IMG/VR virus record: IMGVR_UViG_2541047775_000007
Length of the DNA: 43,098 bases
From: a virus
Lineage: Duplodnaviria; Heunggongvirae; Uroviricota; Caudoviricetes
Direction: 5' to 3' (one strand)
Shown here: piece by piece, positions 5,091-37,949 of the stretch
Layout of the letters: the number at the start of each line of letters is the position of its first letter
Numbering within the stretch: position 1 is the first letter of the stretch
Notes under the pieces: model-generated
The model's input: only the letters and a program-made list of their open reading frames with translations
Told to the model about the DNA's origin: nothing
The model's database searches: none
Position numbers and translations under genes: made by a program

Positions 5091-5387
5091 TCAAATAGAG
5101 AAATAAACACAAAAACAAAAAACAACAGGAACAGCAAAATCCAACAGACTTCCCACATCCCACACGCGTGGATCAAAACCTCCCCACCACGGCATGTTGA
5201 TACGTTTCCCTTTCCCAAACTTTTCTATCCAGCGATATTCTGCCTGGGTGTGTTCACGCGCAATGAAGAACGTACAACCGGCTATCGCACCGTAAGCCCA
5301 GTTTCCGGTAAAAATACCAACCAGTACCTGAGCCACAAAAGCGCAAAGCGAGTGAAGAAATGGAGTGACATCAATGCTCTTAATCAT
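5091..5387 (-). CDS. small membrane protein (98 aa), translationally coupled to the tailspike gene
   Basis: Start codon overlaps tailspike stop (ATGA); 2-3 hydrophobic segments. Confidence 0.5.
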   Translation of the reverse strand: MIKSIDVTPFLHSLCAFVAQVLVGIFTGNWAYGAIAGCTFFIAREHTQAEYRWIEKFGKGKRINMPWWGGFDPRVWDVGSLLDFAVPVVFCFCVYFSI

Positions 5388-7573
5388 GAAACTTCCCCAT
5401 TGGTTGAAAATATGGCTCCTCCAACGCCAAGTGTATTTCGTGTTGTGCTCAACCTCAGAGGGCTGGAGTCAGAATTAGAATATCCTGTAGCAGAAATAAA
5501 AGATCCTCCACTAATAGTCAACTGCGGAACATCGGCTATATCTGAATAAGTTCTGTCAGCAACAGTATTATTTATAGCCACATATGATCCAAAAAAACTT
5601 CTTATTGTTTGGTTTTTAACTTTACTTCCTTCAATGGTTATCCTACTACCACAGTCGGCAATAAATCCTGAATCTGCATCCAGCGTTGCATTCATAAAAG
5701 AAGCTTCAGATCTCTCTACATCAATCCATCTAATATCTTTTGTGGGATTTGCACCAAATACATGACAAATATTAGAGTTAAACCTTACACCATCTTGGAG
5801 GTGCATTAATTTTTTTATATCTGTACCCCATAGCCTTGGAAAATTAACAGATGCTCCTGCATGGCAATCAAATCCCAGCTCAGCCCCTGAGATATCTACA
5901 GCCTTTCCTGAAATAACAGCACCAGTGTCTGCATTAACGGCTGTTCCACAATTGCGCATATCATTACCAGCAACATCAACGCAACCCGCACCATCAATAC
6001 GCACACCAAGTGCACATCCATAAAAACCTTTTTCAATATTTGGTTCAAGGACTTTACCACTTGTTTCTGCATCACTTTCTTCAACGTCATGTCGTCTTGC
6101 ATCAACATATGCTGTATGAATGCAGGTTAATCCACGATATGAGCAATGTATAGTTTTATGGTCGCGTATATTAACATTTGAACCATCTCTTACATTCCAT
6201 CCTATATAACAATAGCTTGCACTTGACCCCTGAAAATCTGCTTTAACATTATAAATACAATTAACTGACGCAACCGTACTCTCTGTGCACCGTTCAAACT
6301 TGCTTACAGGCATTGATGCCTTGACATTATTTACCAGTTGCAGGGAAGAGTATCTGCTATAAGAAAAATCACATACGTAATACCCTTCTGGCATATATGC
6401 AGCAACACTTTCCTCATCAGGAGCACATCCGGTATGATATGCACTAATTTTTGCACCAAAACTACCATGAATTCCAACGTAGAACTTTCGAGCACCTGAA
6501 TACGGATAGAAATTAAGTTCAGCTTTTTGAGTTACAATAAATGCACAAACATCGCTATCATCTCTATTTTCTTCGATCTGAATAGCAAATACAGGACTTT
6601 TTGCTGCATCGCAAATGTAAAATAAATACTTGTATTCGTAATACGTTCTAACGATTTTAGTAAACAAACGAGTGTCAGAGAAAACCACTGAGTCTTCTGA
6701 TGTTATTTTAATCCAAGACAAATCAACACCTGAACTGAATTCAATTTGATAGTTGATAATATGCCCGGTCTTAATTCTTATTTCGCAGAAAGCATTACCA
6801 CCATCCCACATAGGTCTCATTGACTGGGCTGCAATGATTGCATCTTTGAGTGTAGGGTAATCACCCCATTCGCCAACAGTAATAACAAAAGTATAATATG
6901 AGTTAAAAACAGCGGCATTTTTGCCTTTGGATATCAACTCCTTAATCATAAAAATATTATCTTCGTAATCACAAGGAGAAATTATATCCCTCATTTTGCT
7001 TTGAAATGTTCGTTGTCTTGCCCCGCTTCCTGACGGTATAAACCAACCAAAACCACCAACAACCCCGGCGATTGCAGCATCGACATAATTACGCATTGAG
7101 CGATTATTTACAGCATCCTGCTCAAGTGATGGATCTGCAAGGTTAGAAATTCTGTTTTGCTTTGCATCGTAATATTTTGCAAGCAGAGAGGGCTTCATCA
7201 ATGCACGTCTGAACCACCCAAAACATTGCTGGATCAGCATCGTCAGGTAGTCAAAGGCATCTTCATGCACTTCGGGGAAAAATTTTCCCTGATTGCGAAG
7301 GTCTGTCTCCTGCACTACATCAAGCACACGATCTATCGTAATTCGCCATCCAGTAGCAAGCGGAGACGGAAGAACCACAGAACCGCCACTATAAGTGCCC
7401 GCCCCAGTTACCGTATAACCGGTATCCAGGACCAATTCTGTTACGTTCCCGTTCAGGTCAGACACCTGAACAACCAGGTCTGATTTTCTGAAAATTCGAA
7501 AAGTATACGGAAACGATGTCGTAACGCCGTTACCGGTGTATTCGTTGTGGTCAACTTCGGTTGAGACCGTCAT
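5384..7573 (-). CDS. tailspike / tail fibre with conserved N-terminal virion-attachment domain and probable beta-helix receptor-binding/depolymerase body (729 aa)
   Basis: N-terminus MTVSTEVDHNEYTGNGVTTSFPYTFRIFRKSDLVV matches the conserved podovirus tail-fibre/tailspike N-domain motif; AT-rich body with many Cys and Asn/Gly repeats; RBS ggag before ATG. Confidence 0.8.
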   Translation of the reverse strand: MTVSTEVDHNEYTGNGVTTSFPYTFRIFRKSDLVVQVSDLNGNVTELVLDTGYTVTGAGTYSGGSVVLPSPLATGWRITIDRVLDVVQETDLRNQGKFFPEVHEDAFDYLTMLIQQCFGWFRRALMKPSLLAKYYDAKQNRISNLADPSLEQDAVNNRSMRNYVDAAIAGVVGGFGWFIPSGSGARQRTFQSKMRDIISPCDYEDNIFMIKELISKGKNAAVFNSYYTFVITVGEWGDYPTLKDAIIAAQSMRPMWDGGNAFCEIRIKTGHIINYQIEFSSGVDLSWIKITSEDSVVFSDTRLFTKIVRTYYEYKYLFYICDAAKSPVFAIQIEENRDDSDVCAFIVTQKAELNFYPYSGARKFYVGIHGSFGAKISAYHTGCAPDEESVAAYMPEGYYVCDFSYSRYSSLQLVNNVKASMPVSKFERCTESTVASVNCIYNVKADFQGSSASYCYIGWNVRDGSNVNIRDHKTIHCSYRGLTCIHTAYVDARRHDVEESDAETSGKVLEPNIEKGFYGCALGVRIDGAGCVDVAGNDMRNCGTAVNADTGAVISGKAVDISGAELGFDCHAGASVNFPRLWGTDIKKLMHLQDGVRFNSNICHVFGANPTKDIRWIDVERSEASFMNATLDADSGFIADCGSRITIEGSKVKNQTIRSFFGSYVAINNTVADRTYSDIADVPQLTISGGSFISATGYSNSDSSPLRLSTTRNTLGVGGAIFSTNGEVS

Positions 7574-7677
7574 GTTAAATCTCCAGATAGTCGCAGCACC
7601 CGTTGCGCCGCATATCTGGTTATTCTATTACCTGAAAAACCACATATGGATAAAAAGGCTGTAAATACGAATAGATA

Positions 7678-7692
7678 TTACCTTTCAGGTAA
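7678..7692. promoter_or_regulatory. operator-like palindrome TTACCTTTCAGGTAA (motif A)
   Basis: Perfect 5-bp inverted repeat with 5-bp spacer; one member of a family of at least 13 near-identical sites. Confidence 0.6.
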
Positions 7693-7729
7693 TTTGCAAA
7701 ACGTGCTGGATAGCAAACAAATTATTTGC

Positions 7730-7749
7730 TACTGTATAAATATACAGTT
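7730..7749. promoter_or_regulatory. LexA (SOS) box TACTGTATAAATATACAGTT
   Basis: CTGT-N8-ACAG core at 7732-7747 with AT-rich spacer, 18/20 match to the E. coli LexA consensus; 20 bp upstream of the start codon at 7769. Confidence 0.75.
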
Positions 7750-7768
7750 ATTGCATGGAGAAGATAAG

Positions 7769-8026
7769 ATGCAGCGGTATCACTATCCACTGGAAGACGG
7801 ATTTACCGAAAGGATTCACACGCCGGGAGGCGTCAGGTCACTGGTGGAGGGATCGCACTTGATGAAATTACTCCGGGATCTCGATAAGGATGGATTTAAT
7901 GTCGATGGCCCACTTGCCGAACTGACTGCACTGATTAACTACGTTACCAGCTCACAGATGTCTATGCGGGATCTGCAAACACATCTCGACTATTGTGCCG
8001 AACAATTACGAAAACAAACCCGGTAA
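7769..8026 (+). CDS. small antirepressor-like protein (85 aa), paralog of the C-terminal domain of the 9177..9833 antirepressor
   Basis: RBS ggag 8 nt before ATG; sequence aligns with the Ant C-terminus (shared GV..L.E.S.LM.LL..L..DG..V.G..AELT....Y......RD.QTH..Y); LexA box immediately upstream. Confidence 0.65.
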   Translation: MQRYHYPLEDGFTERIHTPGGVRSLVEGSHLMKLLRDLDKDGFNVDGPLAELTALINYVTSSQMSMRDLQTHLDYCAEQLRKQTR

Positions 8027-8030
8027 ATTT

Positions 8031-8052
8031 AAAGGCCGCAAGAGCGGCCTAT
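8031..8052. terminator. bidirectional intrinsic terminator (aggccgc-aaga-gcggcct) between convergent genes
   Basis: 7-bp GC stem flanked by T/A-rich runs on both sides; nearly identical hairpin recurs at 11282-11299. Confidence 0.55.
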
Positions 8053-8777
8053 CGTTTCGCTTTGTGCTCGTCCCAGCACGTTTTGCACCATGCCATTAAG
8101 CCATCCGCATTTTGATTATTAGGGTAAAAGCTTGTTCGTTTTCTGCGGACATTACAAATTGGGCACCACTTCATATGGCGTGTATTCTTTGGGCCATCGA
8201 GACACCTTGCACACCACTTAGTCAATCCATCTGGATTTTTTGACGATTTCCTGAATTTTTCATATGGTAGGTTTATTCTGCATCGCAAGCACTGCTTGCT
8301 ACCACTTGAAACTCTGTTAGCTGATTCTTCTTTTGGCGGCGATACAGAAGGTATTCTTGCTGGCTCTGATACTGCCTGAGGTGCTTTTTTAGATGACTGA
8401 GACGATATGTCATCACCAGGGAATCTTCCATGATATGCCGGACGCATTGACACTCCAGGTGGAAGCTCAGCTGTAAACGGCTTTGGCTGAATCAGTTGCC
8501 TCTCTTTTGCTAACTCCTGCTGTTTATAATATGTCTGGATTACCGCACTATCATAAGCAGGAGGTGCGGAAATATTAGGCGCATTACCTCCAGTTTTTTG
8601 AAACTGAGTAGAGGTGTGTTCTATCACCTGTGTACGATTAATCGTTATCTCCCCATCTTCGGTCTTTATCGTTTTGTTATGATTAACGACCGTACGATCA
8701 GAGATCTTAGTCTTGTTCTGGTTGATAACGTAAATAATCACCGCAACCACACCAACAACTATCCAGAAAACTTCCAT
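8049..8777 (-). CDS. membrane-anchored protein with C-terminal tandem CxxC zinc-ribbon-like motifs (242 aa)
   Basis: RBS gaggaaaag before ATG; N-terminal TM helix; long low-complexity linker; C-terminus CLRC...NPDGLTKWCARC...WCPIC...NADGLMAWCKTC (duplicated DGL..WC..C unit). Confidence 0.7.
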   Translation of the reverse strand: MEVFWIVVGVVAVIIYVINQNKTKISDRTVVNHNKTIKTEDGEITINRTQVIEHTSTQFQKTGGNAPNISAPPAYDSAVIQTYYKQQELAKERQLIQPKPFTAELPPGVSMRPAYHGRFPGDDISSQSSKKAPQAVSEPARIPSVSPPKEESANRVSSGSKQCLRCRINLPYEKFRKSSKNPDGLTKWCARCLDGPKNTRHMKWCPICNVRRKRTSFYPNNQNADGLMAWCKTCWDEHKAKR

Positions 8778-8797
8778 TGCTTTTCCTCACAATAACA

Positions 8798-8812
8798 TTA
8801 CCTTAAAGGTAA
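8798..8812. promoter_or_regulatory. operator-like palindrome TTACCTTAAAGGTAA (motif A)
   Basis: Perfect palindrome 21 bp upstream of the minus-strand start at 8777. Confidence 0.6.
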
Positions 8813-8861
8813 TATCTTGCTTTCAGGTGATCAAGCGTTAAACGCAATCAACCAAATACGG

Positions 8862-8905
8862 TTGATTTTAATATTTCTTCGCGTTTATCATTACCTTTGC
8901 GGTAA
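8862..8905 (+). promoter_or_regulatory. candidate promoter (TTGATT -35) with overlapping operator TTACCTTTGCGGTAA (8891-8905)
   Basis: -35-like hexamer followed by a motif A palindrome; lies about 270 bp upstream of the antirepressor gene. Confidence 0.45.
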
Positions 8906-8942
8906 ATTTACATTGCACTCCTCTTGTGCCATAGTAATCGGG

Positions 8943-9018
8943 CACTGGCAAAATCCAGTGCCGGGATTGGTCTCCCGGATTACTAAGTGGCGCATACCAC
9001 GCCAGACGTGGTTTTTTT
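8943..9018 (+). promoter_or_regulatory. structured leader: three consecutive hairpins ending in an intrinsic terminator (ccacg-ccaga-cgtgg plus T7)
   Basis: Hairpins cactgg/ccagtg (8943-8960), ccggga/tcccgg (8961-8978), and terminator 8996-9018; no credible ORF. Confidence 0.45.
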
Positions 9019-9176
9019 ATGCGTATAGCACAGTCATGCCAGAATTATGGTGGGCTGAATGGGGGTCCGAAAGGACGCCGGTACCACTTAGGCCGGTAAG
9101 ACCAACTCCGTTCAGTTCACCACCATCTGATTGGTCTCAGCGGTGGTGATGTAATTCGCTAAGTGGAGACGCCATC

Positions 9177-9833
9177 ATGAACGCTCAACTCATCCCCGTA
9201 TTCAACGGCACTATATCTAACGAAACAGCCCTACTTTGTAATGCCCGCGATCTGCACACTTTTTTAGGTGTTAAAAAGGTGTTTGCAGCATGGATTACAA
9301 ATCGCATATCAGAATACGAATTCATTGAAAATCAAGACTATATTTTGCTTTCCAATTTGGGAAAGCAAACATCTGGTAGAGGCGGCCACAACCGCAAAGA
9401 GTACCACCTCACCCTTGATACAGCCAAAGAGCTGGCGATGGTCGAGCGTAACGAAAAAGGTCGCCAGGTGCGACGCTACTTCATTGAATGCGAGAAACGT
9501 TTAAGACAACAAGAAACAAAAGTGGAGAAGGTCTTGTCAGGCTTCATGCCCGCCATTATGGAGGCGATCAAGCTGGAAGACAAAAAAGAATACAGCGCCC
9601 CACTGAAGCCCGGCTACCGCAGCCTGATTCATTCTCCGTCTGGTGTTCTCGGACTGACGGAGAACTCACTGCTGATGAATCTGCTGAACCAGTTACAGGA
9701 AGACGGGCACGACGTATCGGGCGCGGCGGCGGAGCTGACCACCATGTTCTGCTACATCGTCGGTGTGAGCAAATGCCTGCGTGATATCCAGACGCACGCG
9801 GAGTACATCAACGACAAGGCAGGGTTCTTCTGA
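9177..9833 (+). CDS. phage antirepressor, AntA/AntB-type N-terminal domain plus C-terminal domain shared with the 7769..8026 protein (218 aa)
   Basis: N-terminus MNAQLIPVFNG...KVFAAWITNRISEYEFIENQDYIL...RYFIECEKRL resembles AntA/AntB antirepressor family; intrinsic terminator at 9843-9865 follows. Confidence 0.7.
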   Translation: MNAQLIPVFNGTISNETALLCNARDLHTFLGVKKVFAAWITNRISEYEFIENQDYILLSNLGKQTSGRGGHNRKEYHLTLDTAKELAMVERNEKGRQVRRYFIECEKRLRQQETKVEKVLSGFMPAIMEAIKLEDKKEYSAPLKPGYRSLIHSPSGVLGLTENSLLMNLLNQLQEDGHDVSGAAAELTTMFCYIVGVSKCLRDIQTHAEYINDKAGFF

Positions 9834-9906
9834 CAGAACGGCGGCACAGGGATGTGCCTTTAAATAATTCTGTACAGATTGCAGACCGGGGGTGAATAGC
9901 GTACTA

Positions 9907-9921
9907 TTACCTTAAAGGTAA
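9907..9921. promoter_or_regulatory. operator-like palindrome TTACCTTAAAGGTAA (motif A)
   Basis: Identical to the 8798 site; 27 bp upstream of the start at 9948. Confidence 0.6.
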
Positions 9922-9947
9922 ACCATGTGTTTACATGAGGAGGAGAT

Positions 9948-10157
9948 ATGGGATTTTGGTTCGCTCGTACAAAAACGAGGGATAATGCACCCAGCCCTCA
10001 GGCAAAAAATGCAGAAGTTCCGGCGTCAGCGCAGGTTAACAAGCGTGGTGGTGTGTATATCTCATCACAGCAAATTTCTGAGCTTCCTGAGGTTAAGGAG
10101 ATGCGTCGTCTCGCTGCTGCAATCGTTAAACAGGATCTTGCCACTGTAAGGAAATAG
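9948..10157 (+). CDS. small hydrophilic protein (69 aa), first gene of a two-gene cassette
   Basis: Very strong RBS gaggaggagat before ATG; stop overlaps start of downstream gene. Confidence 0.6.
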   Translation: MGFWFARTKTRDNAPSPQAKNAEVPASAQVNKRGGVYISSQQISELPEVKEMRRLAAAIVKQDLATVRK

Positions 10158-11023
10158 TGTTGTTAGCTCTTCTAATTATCCCCATTCTGGTTAGTGGTTA
10201 TATTATGATAACCGCTAACCAGTATCATTATTTCCGTTTATACCGACATGAAGGCCAGCTTCTTTATATGAAAGTAGCTGCATTAGGTACATATTGCCTT
10301 GTTGCTTCGGTAATAATTGCCGCATTTATAAAATATAAATATCCTGATTTTCACCTAGTTCACGATATGGTGGAAACTTTTAATGTAACGTCAAAACCAG
10401 AAACAGATAGAATTTACATGTGGCTGCTTCTTCTCTCAGCCACATCCATTTGCTTCTCTTTGTGTTATGTGTCTGTTGTGTGGGTGAAAGATTTTCTTCT
10501 TGGTTGTTTTTATAAACGTGATATTTACGAGCAAAAAACAGAGGCAATGAAGGCCAGAGTACTGCGAAAAACTTACTCGCAAGGTTCTTTAGACTTACTA
10601 TTGCTTGATGCTATTGAATCGGATCCTAAACGACCAATGCTGATTACTTTATCATCAAACAAAGTGTATGTTGGAATAATAAATGGTTCTGGTGAACCAA
10701 CGGAAAATCAGGGTCCGCATCAGCACATATCTTTTGTTCCTTTAATGTCAGGATACAGGAACAAAGACAACTTATCTGTCACATTCACTAATGCTTATCC
10801 AGGAGAAATACAGGTCAAGCGGACTGCAGCAATAAGAGGAATTAGCAGAAAGAAAGTGCCAGGACTTGAGATCATGGTGTCTATTGACGAAATAAGTTAT
10901 ATATCATGGTTTGATTTTGAAGTATATAAAGCAACAAATAACAAAGTAGAATCCAGGGGGCACGTTATTCGTGTTACCAAAAATGGAAGAAATATATATC
11001 AAAGAAATAGCAAAAAAGAATAG
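10157..11023 (+). CDS. AT-rich membrane protein (288 aa; about 3 N-terminal TM helices plus about 170-aa C-terminal domain), candidate superinfection-exclusion/defence protein
   Basis: GTG start with RBS aaggaaa, overlapping upstream stop; markedly lower GC than flanking phage genes; strong terminator downstream. Confidence 0.6.
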   Translation: MLLALLIIPILVSGYIMITANQYHYFRLYRHEGQLLYMKVAALGTYCLVASVIIAAFIKYKYPDFHLVHDMVETFNVTSKPETDRIYMWLLLLSATSICFSLCYVSVVWVKDFLLGCFYKRDIYEQKTEAMKARVLRKTYSQGSLDLLLLDAIESDPKRPMLITLSSNKVYVGIINGSGEPTENQGPHQHISFVPLMSGYRNKDNLSVTFTNAYPGEIQVKRTAAIRGISRKKVPGLEIMVSIDEISYISWFDFEVYKATNNKVESRGHVIRVTKNGRNIYQRNSKKE

Positions 11024-23835: not shown

Positions 23836-23886
23836 CTTCTTTCTCCATTAGTGGGTCTGTTACGACCCACAGGTTAATAACAGGCG

Positions 23887-27779: not shown

Positions 27780-27847
27780 ATCAATGACTCCGTACGCAAT
27801 TAAATTATTACCAATTTAACCACATATGATTTATTTATCGTAGATAG

Positions 27848-27884
27848 TTGACATTTAACGCACAAATTATTACCTTTAAGGTAA
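27848..27884 (+). promoter_or_regulatory. promoter-like TTGACA (27848-27853) with operator TTACCTTTAAGGTAA (27870-27884)
   Basis: Consensus -35 hexamer followed by a motif A palindrome, pointing toward the tRNA island. Confidence 0.5.
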
Positions 27885-28206
27885 CCAAAGAGTTCATTCC
27901 GGTTACTAACCTGACTGGCTTGTCGTTAAATTGAACAGGTGGAGTGAGCTTTTATTTTGAGCAGTACGGCGTATGGCACATGCGCCGATAGCGGTCTGGA
28001 TACGTTTAAGGGGCACCCTCCCTTGCTCGGGCAAACGAACCAGGTAGCCGGAATGTGCAAGTCGAGCGGTTTTATTCCGCGCACGGGGATTCACCATCCC
28101 GGCGATTCGGTGTGACGCCTCGGAAGAGACGAGGGTACAACGATGAGAGCATTTATGGAGCCGCGACAAAGTGTGGCGCCTTAACAGGCTAAGTGCTCTC
28201 AGCGTT

Positions 28207-34745: not shown

Positions 34746-34748
34746 GAT

Positions 34749-34825
34749 TTACCTCTAAGGTAATTAAAAACCACATAAGACACGAAATCAATAGAGTTTA
34801 GAATATTTTGTTACCCAACAGGTAA
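34749..34825. promoter_or_regulatory. two operator palindromes TTACCTCTAAGGTAA (34749-34763) and TTACCCAACAGGTAA (34811-34825)
   Basis: Motif A sites in the intergenic region between the P-like gene and the DUF1064 gene; first site overlaps the RBS. Confidence 0.55.
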
Positions 34826-36676: not shown

Positions 36677-36756
36677 GGTAAGCCCTGTTATTGGTATTGG
36701 GATTACGGTTATTTTGTGCTGACACAAAAAAAAGATCAACCATATTTGGTTTTTTA

Positions 36757-36771
36757 TTACCTTTGAGGTAC
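36757..36771. promoter_or_regulatory. operator-like site TTACCTTTGAGGTAC (motif A, one mismatch)
   Basis: Palindrome next to the motif B palindrome aaccatatttggtt (36738-36751). Confidence 0.5.
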
Positions 36772-36777
36772 GAATAG

Positions 36778-37057: not shown

Positions 37058-37093
37058 AGCTATTGCCTGATATTTATTTCAGATAATAAATAT

Positions 37094-37156
37094 TCACCTA
37101 TAAGGTAACAAAAATCAAGGATAGTTACCCATGAGGTGCATTTACCTGTTGGGTAA
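37094..37156. promoter_or_regulatory. immunity-region operator cluster: TCACCTATAAGGTAA (37094-37108), TTACCCATGAGGTGC (37125-37139), TTACCTGTTGGGTAA (37142-37156)
   Basis: Three motif A sites between divergent Cro-like and repressor genes (OR1-3-like arrangement). Confidence 0.65.
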
Positions 37157-37211
37157 TATTGCTTTAAATTGAATCATCTTCTGATTCAGATATGAGGCGA
37201 TTTTCCAGAAA

Positions 37212-37796
37212 ATGAAAAGTATCCAGGACGTCCGCAGGCAAAATCTCAACGACTTGATCGACCGTGAATTCAATGGTGTTCAGACGCGGATGGCTGAAAA
37301 ACTTGGAACTCAGGCAAATCTGGTAAACCGCTGGGCTCTTGGCAAGAAGGTTATCGGCGACCAGGTTGCGCGAAAAATTGAAGCTGCCGCCAATAAACCC
37401 CGTAACTGGCTTGATATCGATCGCTCGCTTTCTCAGGAAGGTTTTCAGCCTGTCGGACCAAGCGACATTGGTCAACTGGCGGCTCACAACCTGAAACGCT
37501 GGATGAGCGAAAGCCGCGACCTTTCAACGCAGGGAAAACTTCACCGCGCATCCGGCGTCGCCCAGGTAACAATCAGTCGCCTGTTAAACAATGAGGTCAG
37601 CGTTTCCATTTCCACCCTGGAGAATGTTGCATCCGCATTCGGGCGTCACGGCTATGAATTACTGATTCACCCGCACGACCCTGCGACCATCAACTATGAC
37701 CGCTCGCGCTACGCATTGTTACCCGAAACCGAGAAAGCAAAGATCGAAAGTTACATTGAATTTGTCATCAACCAGAACGAAAAAAACAAACAATAA
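37212..37796 (+). CDS. phage repressor with two tandem HTH (XRE-type) domains and no recognisable LexA-like autocleavage domain (194 aa)
   Basis: Two segments matching the Q..LA...G.....VSR HTH pattern; no S24 peptidase motif seen by eye; divergent from Cro-like gene. Confidence 0.65.
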   Translation: MKSIQDVRRQNLNDLIDREFNGVQTRMAEKLGTQANLVNRWALGKKVIGDQVARKIEAAANKPRNWLDIDRSLSQEGFQPVGPSDIGQLAAHNLKRWMSESRDLSTQGKLHRASGVAQVTISRLLNNEVSVSISTLENVASAFGRHGYELLIHPHDPATINYDRSRYALLPETEKAKIESYIEFVINQNEKNKQ

Positions 37797-37841: not shown

Positions 37842-37853
37842 TTGCCTATTTGA

Positions 37854-37930
37854 TTACCTAACGGGTAATTTTTTTAACTCATATCTATTGACATCAAACC
37901 AGATACGCATAATTATTACCTCAACGGTAA
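37854..37930 (+). promoter_or_regulatory. PL-like promoter region: operator TTACCTAACGGGTAA (37854-37868), TTGACA (37888-37893), operator TTACCTCAACGGTAA (37916-37930)
   Basis: Consensus -35 flanked by two motif A palindromes upstream of the plus-strand early operon. Confidence 0.55.
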
Positions 37931-37949
37931 CAGACCGAGGTAACAAGTT

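Follow-up and report, generated by a model that had tools for sequence, protein, structure and literature searches.

[quoted passage not shown] Judged by its matches and gene content, the window is an epsilon15/phiV10-like (Uetakevirus) prophage of Escherichia coli. It contains the whole prophage: genes for terminase, portal and tailspike, an immunity region at about 36.8–37.8 kb and, at its right end, an integrase gene. The best matches of segment 7400–8100 are the Uetakevirus podoviruses phiV10, TL-2011b, vB_EcoP_ZX5 and phiv142-3, with epsilon15 and SPC32H as more distant matches; E. coli chromosomes carry the same segment with an identity of up to 99.9%, and the longer segment 7400–9900 was found, at a coverage of at least 80%, in 99 of 5,426 complete E. 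coli genomes. A contig scan of genomes with one protein returned six close relatives. Among the O-antigens modified by members of the phiV10-like group is that of O157. As in SPC32H and epsilon15, ant adjoins the tailspike gene, which is divergent from it, and the immunity region lies some 29 kb away.

A near-consensus LexA box with its core, CTGT-N8-ACAG, at 7732–7747 had been proposed in a sequence-only reading of this DNA, and is confirmed here. The box, TACTGTATAAATATACAGTT, departs from the 20-nt LexA consensus of E. coli, TACTGTATATATATACAGTA, at two positions and matches it at the other 18; it is the sole match in the 43-kb window at three or fewer mismatches, against 0.00 expected from 100 dinucleotide-preserving shuffles, and it has the A+T-rich spacer and the TA...TA flanks of an E. 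coli-type LexA box. The distance to the gene, previously given as 20 bp, is 19 nt from the end of the box to the ATG of ant. Cores with a single mismatch are at chance level in the window (17 found, 15.2 expected). Two other exact cores, at 23857 and 28399, were rejected as chance occurrences; both have a G+C-rich spacer, the former being part of a GC hairpin and the latter lying inside an 83-aa open reading frame (ORF).

The box was then compared across 16 phage and prophage sequences from Escherichia, Salmonella, Enterobacter, Klebsiella, Citrobacter, Erwinia, Superficieibacter, Pseudocitrobacter and Scandinavium. Box and ATG are 18–19 nt apart in 15 sequences, the exception being the Superficieibacter locus with 23 nt, and box and gene are conserved in at least eight genera. 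The half-sites are kept while the bases of the N8 spacer vary (ATAAATAT, ATATTTAT, ATGTTTAT, ATAAGCAT, ACATATAT, ATAAACAT and others), which points to selection on the half-sites; in the Klebsiella and Superficieibacter boxes ATGT replaces CTGT. Over an aligned stretch of 230 bp, SPC32N differs from SPC32H by a C>A change in the ACAG half-site, at the equivalent of C7745 in the window, and by one base in the coding end of the tailspike gene. Kim and Ryu reportedly found these two phages to be two nucleotides apart, with one of the differences in the LexA box, and the change in the SPC32N box alone is said to result in constitutive Ant and a lytic phenotype; at the nucleotide level, the SPC32N and SPC32H sequences agree with the LexA-box difference so reported. 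We infer that LexA would bind at 7730–7749 and that ant would be derepressed during the SOS response.

The 85-aa product of ant matched a single solved structure, chain E of PDB 5D50 ('Anti-repressor protein', 86 aa), from residue 2 to residue 84 (E = 3.5e-46). It is 87.1% identical to the product of the SPC32H coding sequence named ant in GenBank, and falls into phrog_450 (E = 1.2e-47); like SPC32H Ant it is a stand-alone protein of about 86 residues, homologous over its full length. In GenBank, the SPC32H and SPC32N records alike use 'ant' for the gene and 'rep' for the repressor. Most phage records, and RefSeq, however, carry the ORF as a hypothetical protein, because no Pfam or NCBIfam model matches the 85-aa protein and phrog_450 is labelled 'unknown function'. 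The sequence GCATGGAGA upstream of the ant ATG is kept in nearly all of the relatives compared. A 126-aa reading from the ATG at 7646, returned by some gene callers, was rejected: it has no ribosome-binding site and spans both the LexA box and the upstream palindrome, and the homologs start at the 7769 ATG. The hairpin between ant and the convergent gene for a 242-aa protein is a probable bidirectional terminator, and the epsilon15 record has a rho-independent terminator annotated at the equivalent place. The Ant domain family is small. A word-indexed protein search with Ant returned almost exclusively orthologs of 85–86 aa, and an exhaustive profile search of 1.84 billion proteins yielded 56 cluster representatives; these either stand alone, at about 85 aa, or carry the Ant domain C-terminally behind an AntA, Bro-N or Phage_pRha domain. 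The small ant with its LexA box was found in every genus member examined.

Rep, the presumed target of Ant, is a 194-aa protein with a full-length match to chain A of 5D50 ('Repressor'; E = 3.9e-42) and a match to chain A of 5D4Z, and is 42–43% identical to the Rep proteins of SPC32H and epsilon15. A cognate repressor of the SPC32H type is thus encoded in the same genome as Ant, and each of the 35 phage records with an Ant gene has a Rep of this family too. The sequence-only reading had credited the repressor with two HTH domains and no visible autocleavage domain. The absence of the latter was borne out, since no Peptidase_S24 domain was found with Pfam, in which only HTH-type models matched at E ≤ 0.01. 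Of the two HTH domains, one is a significant HTH_3 match at residues 106–147 and the other a weak HTH-like match at residues 21–61. [quoted passage not shown] In the same parts of the literature on the SPC32H system Rep is described as binding DNA as a tetramer. The 84 positions that are invariant in the Rep comparison are spread over all three regions.

The ant promoter is predicted to lie such that its −10 hexamer, TACTGT, coincides with the left end of the LexA box. In a heuristic scan of 11 relatives with a simple −35/−10 weight matrix, TGGATA-17-TACTGT was the top plus-strand candidate at an identical position in nine of the 11 and a close second in a tenth, and TCCATA-17-TAGAAT, a candidate promoter for the tailspike gene, was the top minus-strand candidate in 10 of the 11. 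A consensus sigma-70 scan, at its threshold, gave no promoter in 7574–7768. The −10 of the tailspike promoter candidate is overlapped by a conserved half-site, TATTACC (7626–7632), and a perfect ATTACC-N5-GGTAAT palindrome lies between the −35 hexamers of the two divergent candidates, its centre some 57 bp before the start predicted for ant (Table 1).

Table 1. Coordinates of the features of the ant locus, the immunity region and the large antirepressor module in the window
Feature	Position	Strand	Details
Tailspike gene	5384..7573	−	Divergent neighbour of ant
Predicted divergent tailspike promoter	7622..7650	−	−35 TCCATA 7645–7650, 17-bp spacer, −10 TAGAAT 7622–7627
Operator-like palindrome ATTACCTTTCAGGTAAT ('motif A')	7677..7693		Perfect ATTACC-N5-GGTAAT
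Predicted ant promoter	7707..7735	+	−35 TGGATA 7707–7712, 17-bp spacer, −10 TACTGT 7730–7735
LexA (SOS) box TACTGTATAAATATACAGTT	7730..7749	+	Core CTGT-N8-ACAG at 7732–7747
ant ribosome-binding site GGAGAAG	7757..7763	+	GGAG at 7757–7760
ant, 85-aa small antirepressor, probable SPC32H Ant ortholog	7769..8026	+	ATG 7769, stop 8024–8026
GC-rich hairpin AGGCCGCTCTTGCGGCCT	8033..8050		Between the convergent ant and 242-aa genes
IsrK-like sRNA	8942–9018	+	RF01394, 67.7 bits, above gathering score
C4-like antisense RNA	9043–9127	+	RF01695, 61.2 bits, above gathering score
Large antirepressor paralog, 218 aa	9177..9833	+	AntA N-terminal and Ant-like C-terminal domain
Best operator-like site of the cro-rep intergenic region	37141..37157		Degenerate copies 37093–37109, 37124–37140
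rep, 194-aa repressor, presumed Ant target	37212..37796	+	Full-length SPC32H Rep homolog
Operator-like sites flanking the leftward-early promoter	37853–37869, 37915–37931		

The palindrome is one of many. At two or fewer mismatches the window holds 15 copies of ATTACC-N5-GGTAAT, with 1.06 expected; they are found in the cro-rep intergenic region and on the flanks of the early-left promoter downstream of rep, and further copies stand before the terminase, portal, replication and accessory gene blocks. The copy at 7677–7693 is at −92 from the ant ATG in the compared sequences, or at −90 or −96 in three of them. In the epsilon15 GenBank record the same palindromes are annotated as 'protein_bind repressor', among them the one that separates the tailspike gene from gp19, the homolog of ant. 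Being a real, phage-wide motif with this annotation in epsilon15, the sequence at 7677–7693 is very probably a Rep operator.

With these elements in place, a switch can be proposed. In the lysogen, ant would be kept silent by host LexA sitting on the box, which would cover the −10 and the start region of the promoter. After DNA damage, RecA-stimulated cleavage of LexA would free the promoter and the 85-aa Ant would be made. By homology with the 5D50 co-crystal, Ant would then bind, as an oligomer, to the C-terminal tetramerisation/Ant-binding domain of Rep and break the DNA-binding Rep tetramer into dimers, which would be released from the ATTACC-N5-GGTAAT operators. Since such operators precede each phage transcription unit, the lytic genes would be switched on without Rep being cleaved. 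Every feature of the SPC32H Ant-Rep-LexA switch for which the sequence could be checked is present at the window locus, with the overlap of promoter and box as a prediction. The Ant-Rep contact in the window phage is extrapolated from SPC32H, because Rep is only 42–43% identical to its SPC32H counterpart whereas Ant is 87% identical. Induction through a LexA-derepressed antirepressor, as the sequence-only reading had suggested, gains support from the orthology of both proteins to those of SPC32H and from the box being at the same position. In a passage that cites Kim & Ryu (2013), PMC7380047 describes LexA self-cleavage as leading to an antirepressor that inhibits the repressor by protein-protein contact.

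A second gene with an Ant-like domain lies close by. The 85-aa ORF aligns, as had been noticed earlier, with the C-terminal domain of a 218-aa antirepressor (residues 137–210; 43% identity over 74 aa, gapless, E = 1e-16), which has an AntA domain (PF08346) at residues 22–92 (E = 6e-26). The C4-like RNA upstream of it has a stable fold (z = −5.5) and exposes CCACUUAG (9084–9091), complementary to CTAAGTGG (9159–9166), which abuts the ribosome-binding site; in addition, AGACCAA (9099–9105) is complementary to TTGGTCT (9131–9137) in the leader of the large gene. The combination of an AntA domain with a C4-type RNA in the leader is that of the P1/P7 immI type. Operator-like palindromes are present upstream of the module (8797–8813 and 8890–8906), and a core scan that included one-mismatch cores found no LexA box before the 218-aa gene. 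The C-terminal 80 or so residues of the 218-aa protein are identical to those of ORF4 of ZX5, in which the N-terminal domain is Bro-N; the Rep of ZX5 is 99.5% identical to that of the window. When ORF4 was overexpressed, the prophage titre fell from 10^9 to 10^6 (PMC9782041); in that study of the near-identical E. coli phage ZX5 only the large antirepressor was tested, antirepression was ascribed to it alone, and neither LexA nor the small gene was mentioned. SPC32H and epsilon15 carry the small gene only, and judged by this distribution the small gene is the core switch and the large paralog is a separate, accessory module.

Could the box and the gene be something else altogether? A chance or relic LexA-like palindrome in front of an unrelated small hypothetical gene would fit the hypothetical-protein entries in RefSeq and most phage records and the lack of a Pfam or NCBIfam match, but is scarcely credible given that no match to the box was expected by chance, that box and gene are kept across at least eight genera, and that the protein has 87% identity with an antirepressor of solved crystal structure. 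It is also quite improbable, if less so, that the prophage is induced mainly by other means than its small Ant, with either the large, IsrK/C4-gated antirepressor taking this part or the small Ant acting mainly in trans on other prophages or in mixed oligomers with the large paralog. The large protein does have the homologous C-terminal domain, and its ZX5 counterpart, with an identical C-terminal domain and facing a near-identical Rep, lowered lysogeny about 1000-fold when overexpressed; moreover, conservation of 87% for Ant against 42% for Rep is what would be expected of a broadly cross-reacting antirepressor, and the Gifsy and Fels-1 antirepressors do act across phages. However, it is the small ant that comes with a LexA box in all genus members examined, and it is the small Ant that was co-crystallised with the Rep of SPC32H. 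The large paralog is missing from SPC32H and epsilon15, each record giving a single match, and its N-terminal domain is swapped among relatives (AntA, Bro-N, pRha). We therefore keep to the small Ant as the SOS-responsive inducer.

The role of the palindrome at 7677–7693 was weighed separately. The sequence-only reading was correct in seeing a motif A operator upstream of ant; the dual control that it drew from this is not established. Rep bound at the palindrome might repress ant along with LexA, or tune its basal expression, and full expression might follow only after both LexA and Rep are gone; either form of this idea appears unlikely to us. The palindrome is a perfect copy of a phage-wide operator-like motif, its distance to the ant ATG is almost invariant in all relatives, only 14 nt lie between its end and the predicted −35, and a Rep tetramer could bridge sites. 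On the other hand, with its centre at about −57, it overlaps neither the −35, nor the −10, nor the start of the predicted ant promoter. An equivalent unit, formed by the half-site, AACCACATATG and the palindrome, is found before the portal operon (27806–27885), which has no ant gene, and in the epsilon15 annotation the palindrome and an IHF site are both placed upstream of the tailspike gene. Moreover, if Rep held ant tightly shut, SOS induction would fail, because Rep would still be bound once LexA had been cleaved. Finally, the palindrome is intact in SPC32N, in which mutation of the box alone reportedly makes Ant constitutive. Most likely, the palindrome belongs to the divergent tailspike promoter, and it probably does not serve as a further lock on ant. 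The tailspike gene of epsilon15 needs a promoter of its own, since gp18 is followed by a terminator; the insertion of ant and the terminator most likely separate the tailspike gene from the remaining late operon.

Returning to the LexA-controlled small Ant as the core of the switch, the presence of the larger protein raises the question of whether the two act together. Tentatively, and with more doubt than confidence, we consider a two-input, two-tier antirepression based on a single Rep-binding domain, with the small Ant as the SOS input through LexA and the large fusion as a second antirepressor behind sites resembling Rep operators and an RNA gate of IsrK and C4. This fusion could provide positive feedback or commitment as Rep falls, could serve as an SOS-independent input for induction or anti-immunity, or could form mixed oligomers with the small Ant, and it may be built with swappable N-terminal domains of a DNA-binding type, AntA here, Bro-N in ZX5 and pRha elsewhere. 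The conservation of Ant at 87% across phages whose Reps are 42% identical also suggests that the small Ant might cross-induce heteroimmune Uetakevirus prophages. LexA-controlled antirepression in the genus Uetakevirus is already known, the genetics reportedly from Kim and Ryu in 2013 (J Virol 87:11775) and the structure from Kim and colleagues in 2016 (PNAS 113:E2480), and the window locus adds little to it scientifically. Its practical value is in correcting the 'hypothetical protein' annotations of the small Ant; once ant is recognised, SOS induction of phiV10-like prophages is predicted to run through LexA and to need no cleavage of the repressor. A modest extension is that the prophage has a further antirepressor, RNA-gated and sharing the C-terminal domain, with a possible two-input design.

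Among known systems, the immI region of P1/P7 (C4, then Ant) and the isrK-orf45-anrP locus of Gifsy-1 (PMC4825925) resemble the module of the 218-aa paralog only. The likeness extends to the AntA-family N-terminus, the IsrK and C4 matches directly upstream, C4 loops complementary to the leader and ribosome-binding site, and operator-like sites upstream of the promoter of the module; the C-terminal domain of the 218-aa protein, however, is of the SPC32H Ant type and not of the P1 Ant type, and the module is found in a podovirus, between structural genes. FsoA of Fels-1, which is controlled by the phage repressor instead of LexA, is a precedent for a second antirepressor outside SOS control, as the large paralog appears to be, although FsoA is an unrelated protein and has no role in inducing its own phage.

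The sequence-only reading had likened the locus to 186 Tum and to the Gifsy-type phages, and as functional analogues these hold. Phage 186 follows the same logic, in that its small antirepressor (of CI) has a promoter to itself, the −10 of which is covered by a LexA box; the annotated −10 of p95/tum is TACTGT, inside the LexA box TACTGTATGTTTATACAGTA, which is identical to the epsilon15 box. Homology of the window Ant to Tum or to DinI-fusion antirepressors was rejected: the best pairwise alignment with Tum, 30% identity over 47 aa with gaps, is not significant (E = 0.04), and Ant belongs to no Pfam family, whereas Tum is a 146-aa protein with a DinI-like C-terminal half from a P2-like myovirus with another repressor. 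GfoA, GftA and GfhA of Gifsy-1/-2/-3, and AntC of N15, compared here by function, are likewise small, LexA-controlled and encoded outside the immunity region. These antirepressors bind and inactivate non-cleavable repressors and cross-react between heteroimmune phages (for Gifsy, Lemire et al., 2011; PMC3121763); they differ in belonging, presumably, to other protein families, in being encoded beside dinI homologues in lambdoid siphoviruses, and in forming A2B2 complexes that are not tetramer-based.

The closest system is the Ant-Rep-LexA switch of SPC32H (PDB 5D50, 5D4Z), from the same genus, Uetakevirus. There, ant likewise stands beside the tailspike gene, on the opposite strand from it; neither the spacing of LexA box and ATG nor the place of the upstream palindrome differs, and Rep is of the same family, without an autocleavage domain. 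The differences are those of a related phage in another host, E. coli for the window prophage and Salmonella for SPC32H: Ant is 85 aa long in the window and 86 aa in SPC32H, the box has two mismatches to the consensus instead of three, Rep is far more divergent than Ant, and the window has about 3 kb of accessory genes beyond ant, including the IsrK/C4 elements and the larger antirepressor, that SPC32H and epsilon15 do not carry.

The 17-bp palindrome ATTACC-N5-GGTAAT, an operator-like motif and putative target of the 194-aa repressor Rep, lies upstream of virtually all transcription units of this prophage, the structural operons included, which suggests that all units are repressed by Rep directly, with no regulatory cascade in between. 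In several cases, two sites lie 62 bp apart. The palindrome is also part of a recurrent composite unit, in which a TATTACC half-site or a full palindrome is followed by an A-rich stretch, by AACCACATATG and, about 30 nt on, by a full palindrome. This unit looks like a reused, putative promoter/operator cassette.

Operator-like sites, leader elements and accessory ORFs of the prophage
Feature	Coordinates	Strand	Remark
Palindrome ATTACC-N5-GGTAAT (starts)	7677, 8797, 8890, 9906, 27869, 31011, 31029, 34748, 34810, 36756, 37141, 37853, 37915		
Composite palindrome/AACCACATATG unit	7626-7693, 27806-27885		related copies near 34748-34790 and 36740-36772
242-aa ORF	8049-8777	-	convergent with ant; phrog_6762
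IsrK-like sRNA	8942-9018	+	in leader of 218-aa antirepressor gene (9177-9833)
Short ORF	about 9036-9149		overlaps C4 region upstream of 218-aa antirepressor gene
C4-like antisense RNA	9043-9127	+	in leader of 218-aa antirepressor gene (9177-9833)
288-aa ORF	10157-11023	+	membrane segments predicted; phrog_3630

Between ant, the gene for the 85-aa antirepressor, and the divergent tailspike gene, a 21-bp near-palindrome, TAGCAAACAA-A-TTATTTGCTA, is found at 7711-7731, within the spacer of the predicted ant promoter. The E. coli group carries this element, and SPC32H and epsilon15 lack it; it may be due to chance or represent an additional binding site. At 7578-7624, in the predicted 5′ leader of the tailspike mRNA, lies an inverted repeat of 21 nt with imperfect pairing (71% complementary), and the tailspike ribosome-binding region falls within it. 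Some gene callers take ATG 7646 as the start of ant, giving a 126-aa product (7646-8026; cluster P0003, 833 members); this longer frame spans both the palindrome and the LexA box and almost certainly begins too far upstream.

Relative to SPC32H, a Salmonella phage in which both proteins have been characterised, Ant (7769-8026) is 87% identical but Rep (37212-37796) only 42%; the two phages share one and the same operator motif. This asymmetry in identity hints that Ant may cross-react between heteroimmune phages of the genus. Convergent with ant, the 242-aa ORF codes for a hydrophobic segment at the N terminus and for two Cys-rich repeats at the C terminus, which are reminiscent of endonuclease VII or Lar-like zinc-binding motifs; in TL-2011b the equivalent stretch has no gene annotation and bears only a miscellaneous-feature label. 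The 288-aa ORF, preceded by its own operator-like palindrome (9906-9922), may be a moron or a superinfection-exclusion candidate.

The last ~80 residues of the large, 218-aa antirepressor (9579-9833) are identical to those of ORF4, the large antirepressor of phage ZX5 (L020, 1081-1773). The two proteins carry different N-terminal domains, AntA in the prophage and Bro-N in ZX5, and other relatives have pRha there. N-terminal domains appear to have been swapped around one conserved Ant-like effector domain. In the leader of the large antirepressor gene, which carries IsrK-like and C4-like RNAs, the stretches at 9131-9137 and 9159-9166 are complementary to loop sequences of the C4-like RNA, and the ribosome-binding site of the gene adjoins the second of these. 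The short ORF overlaps the C4 region in the manner of orf45 of the Gifsy-1 isrK locus.
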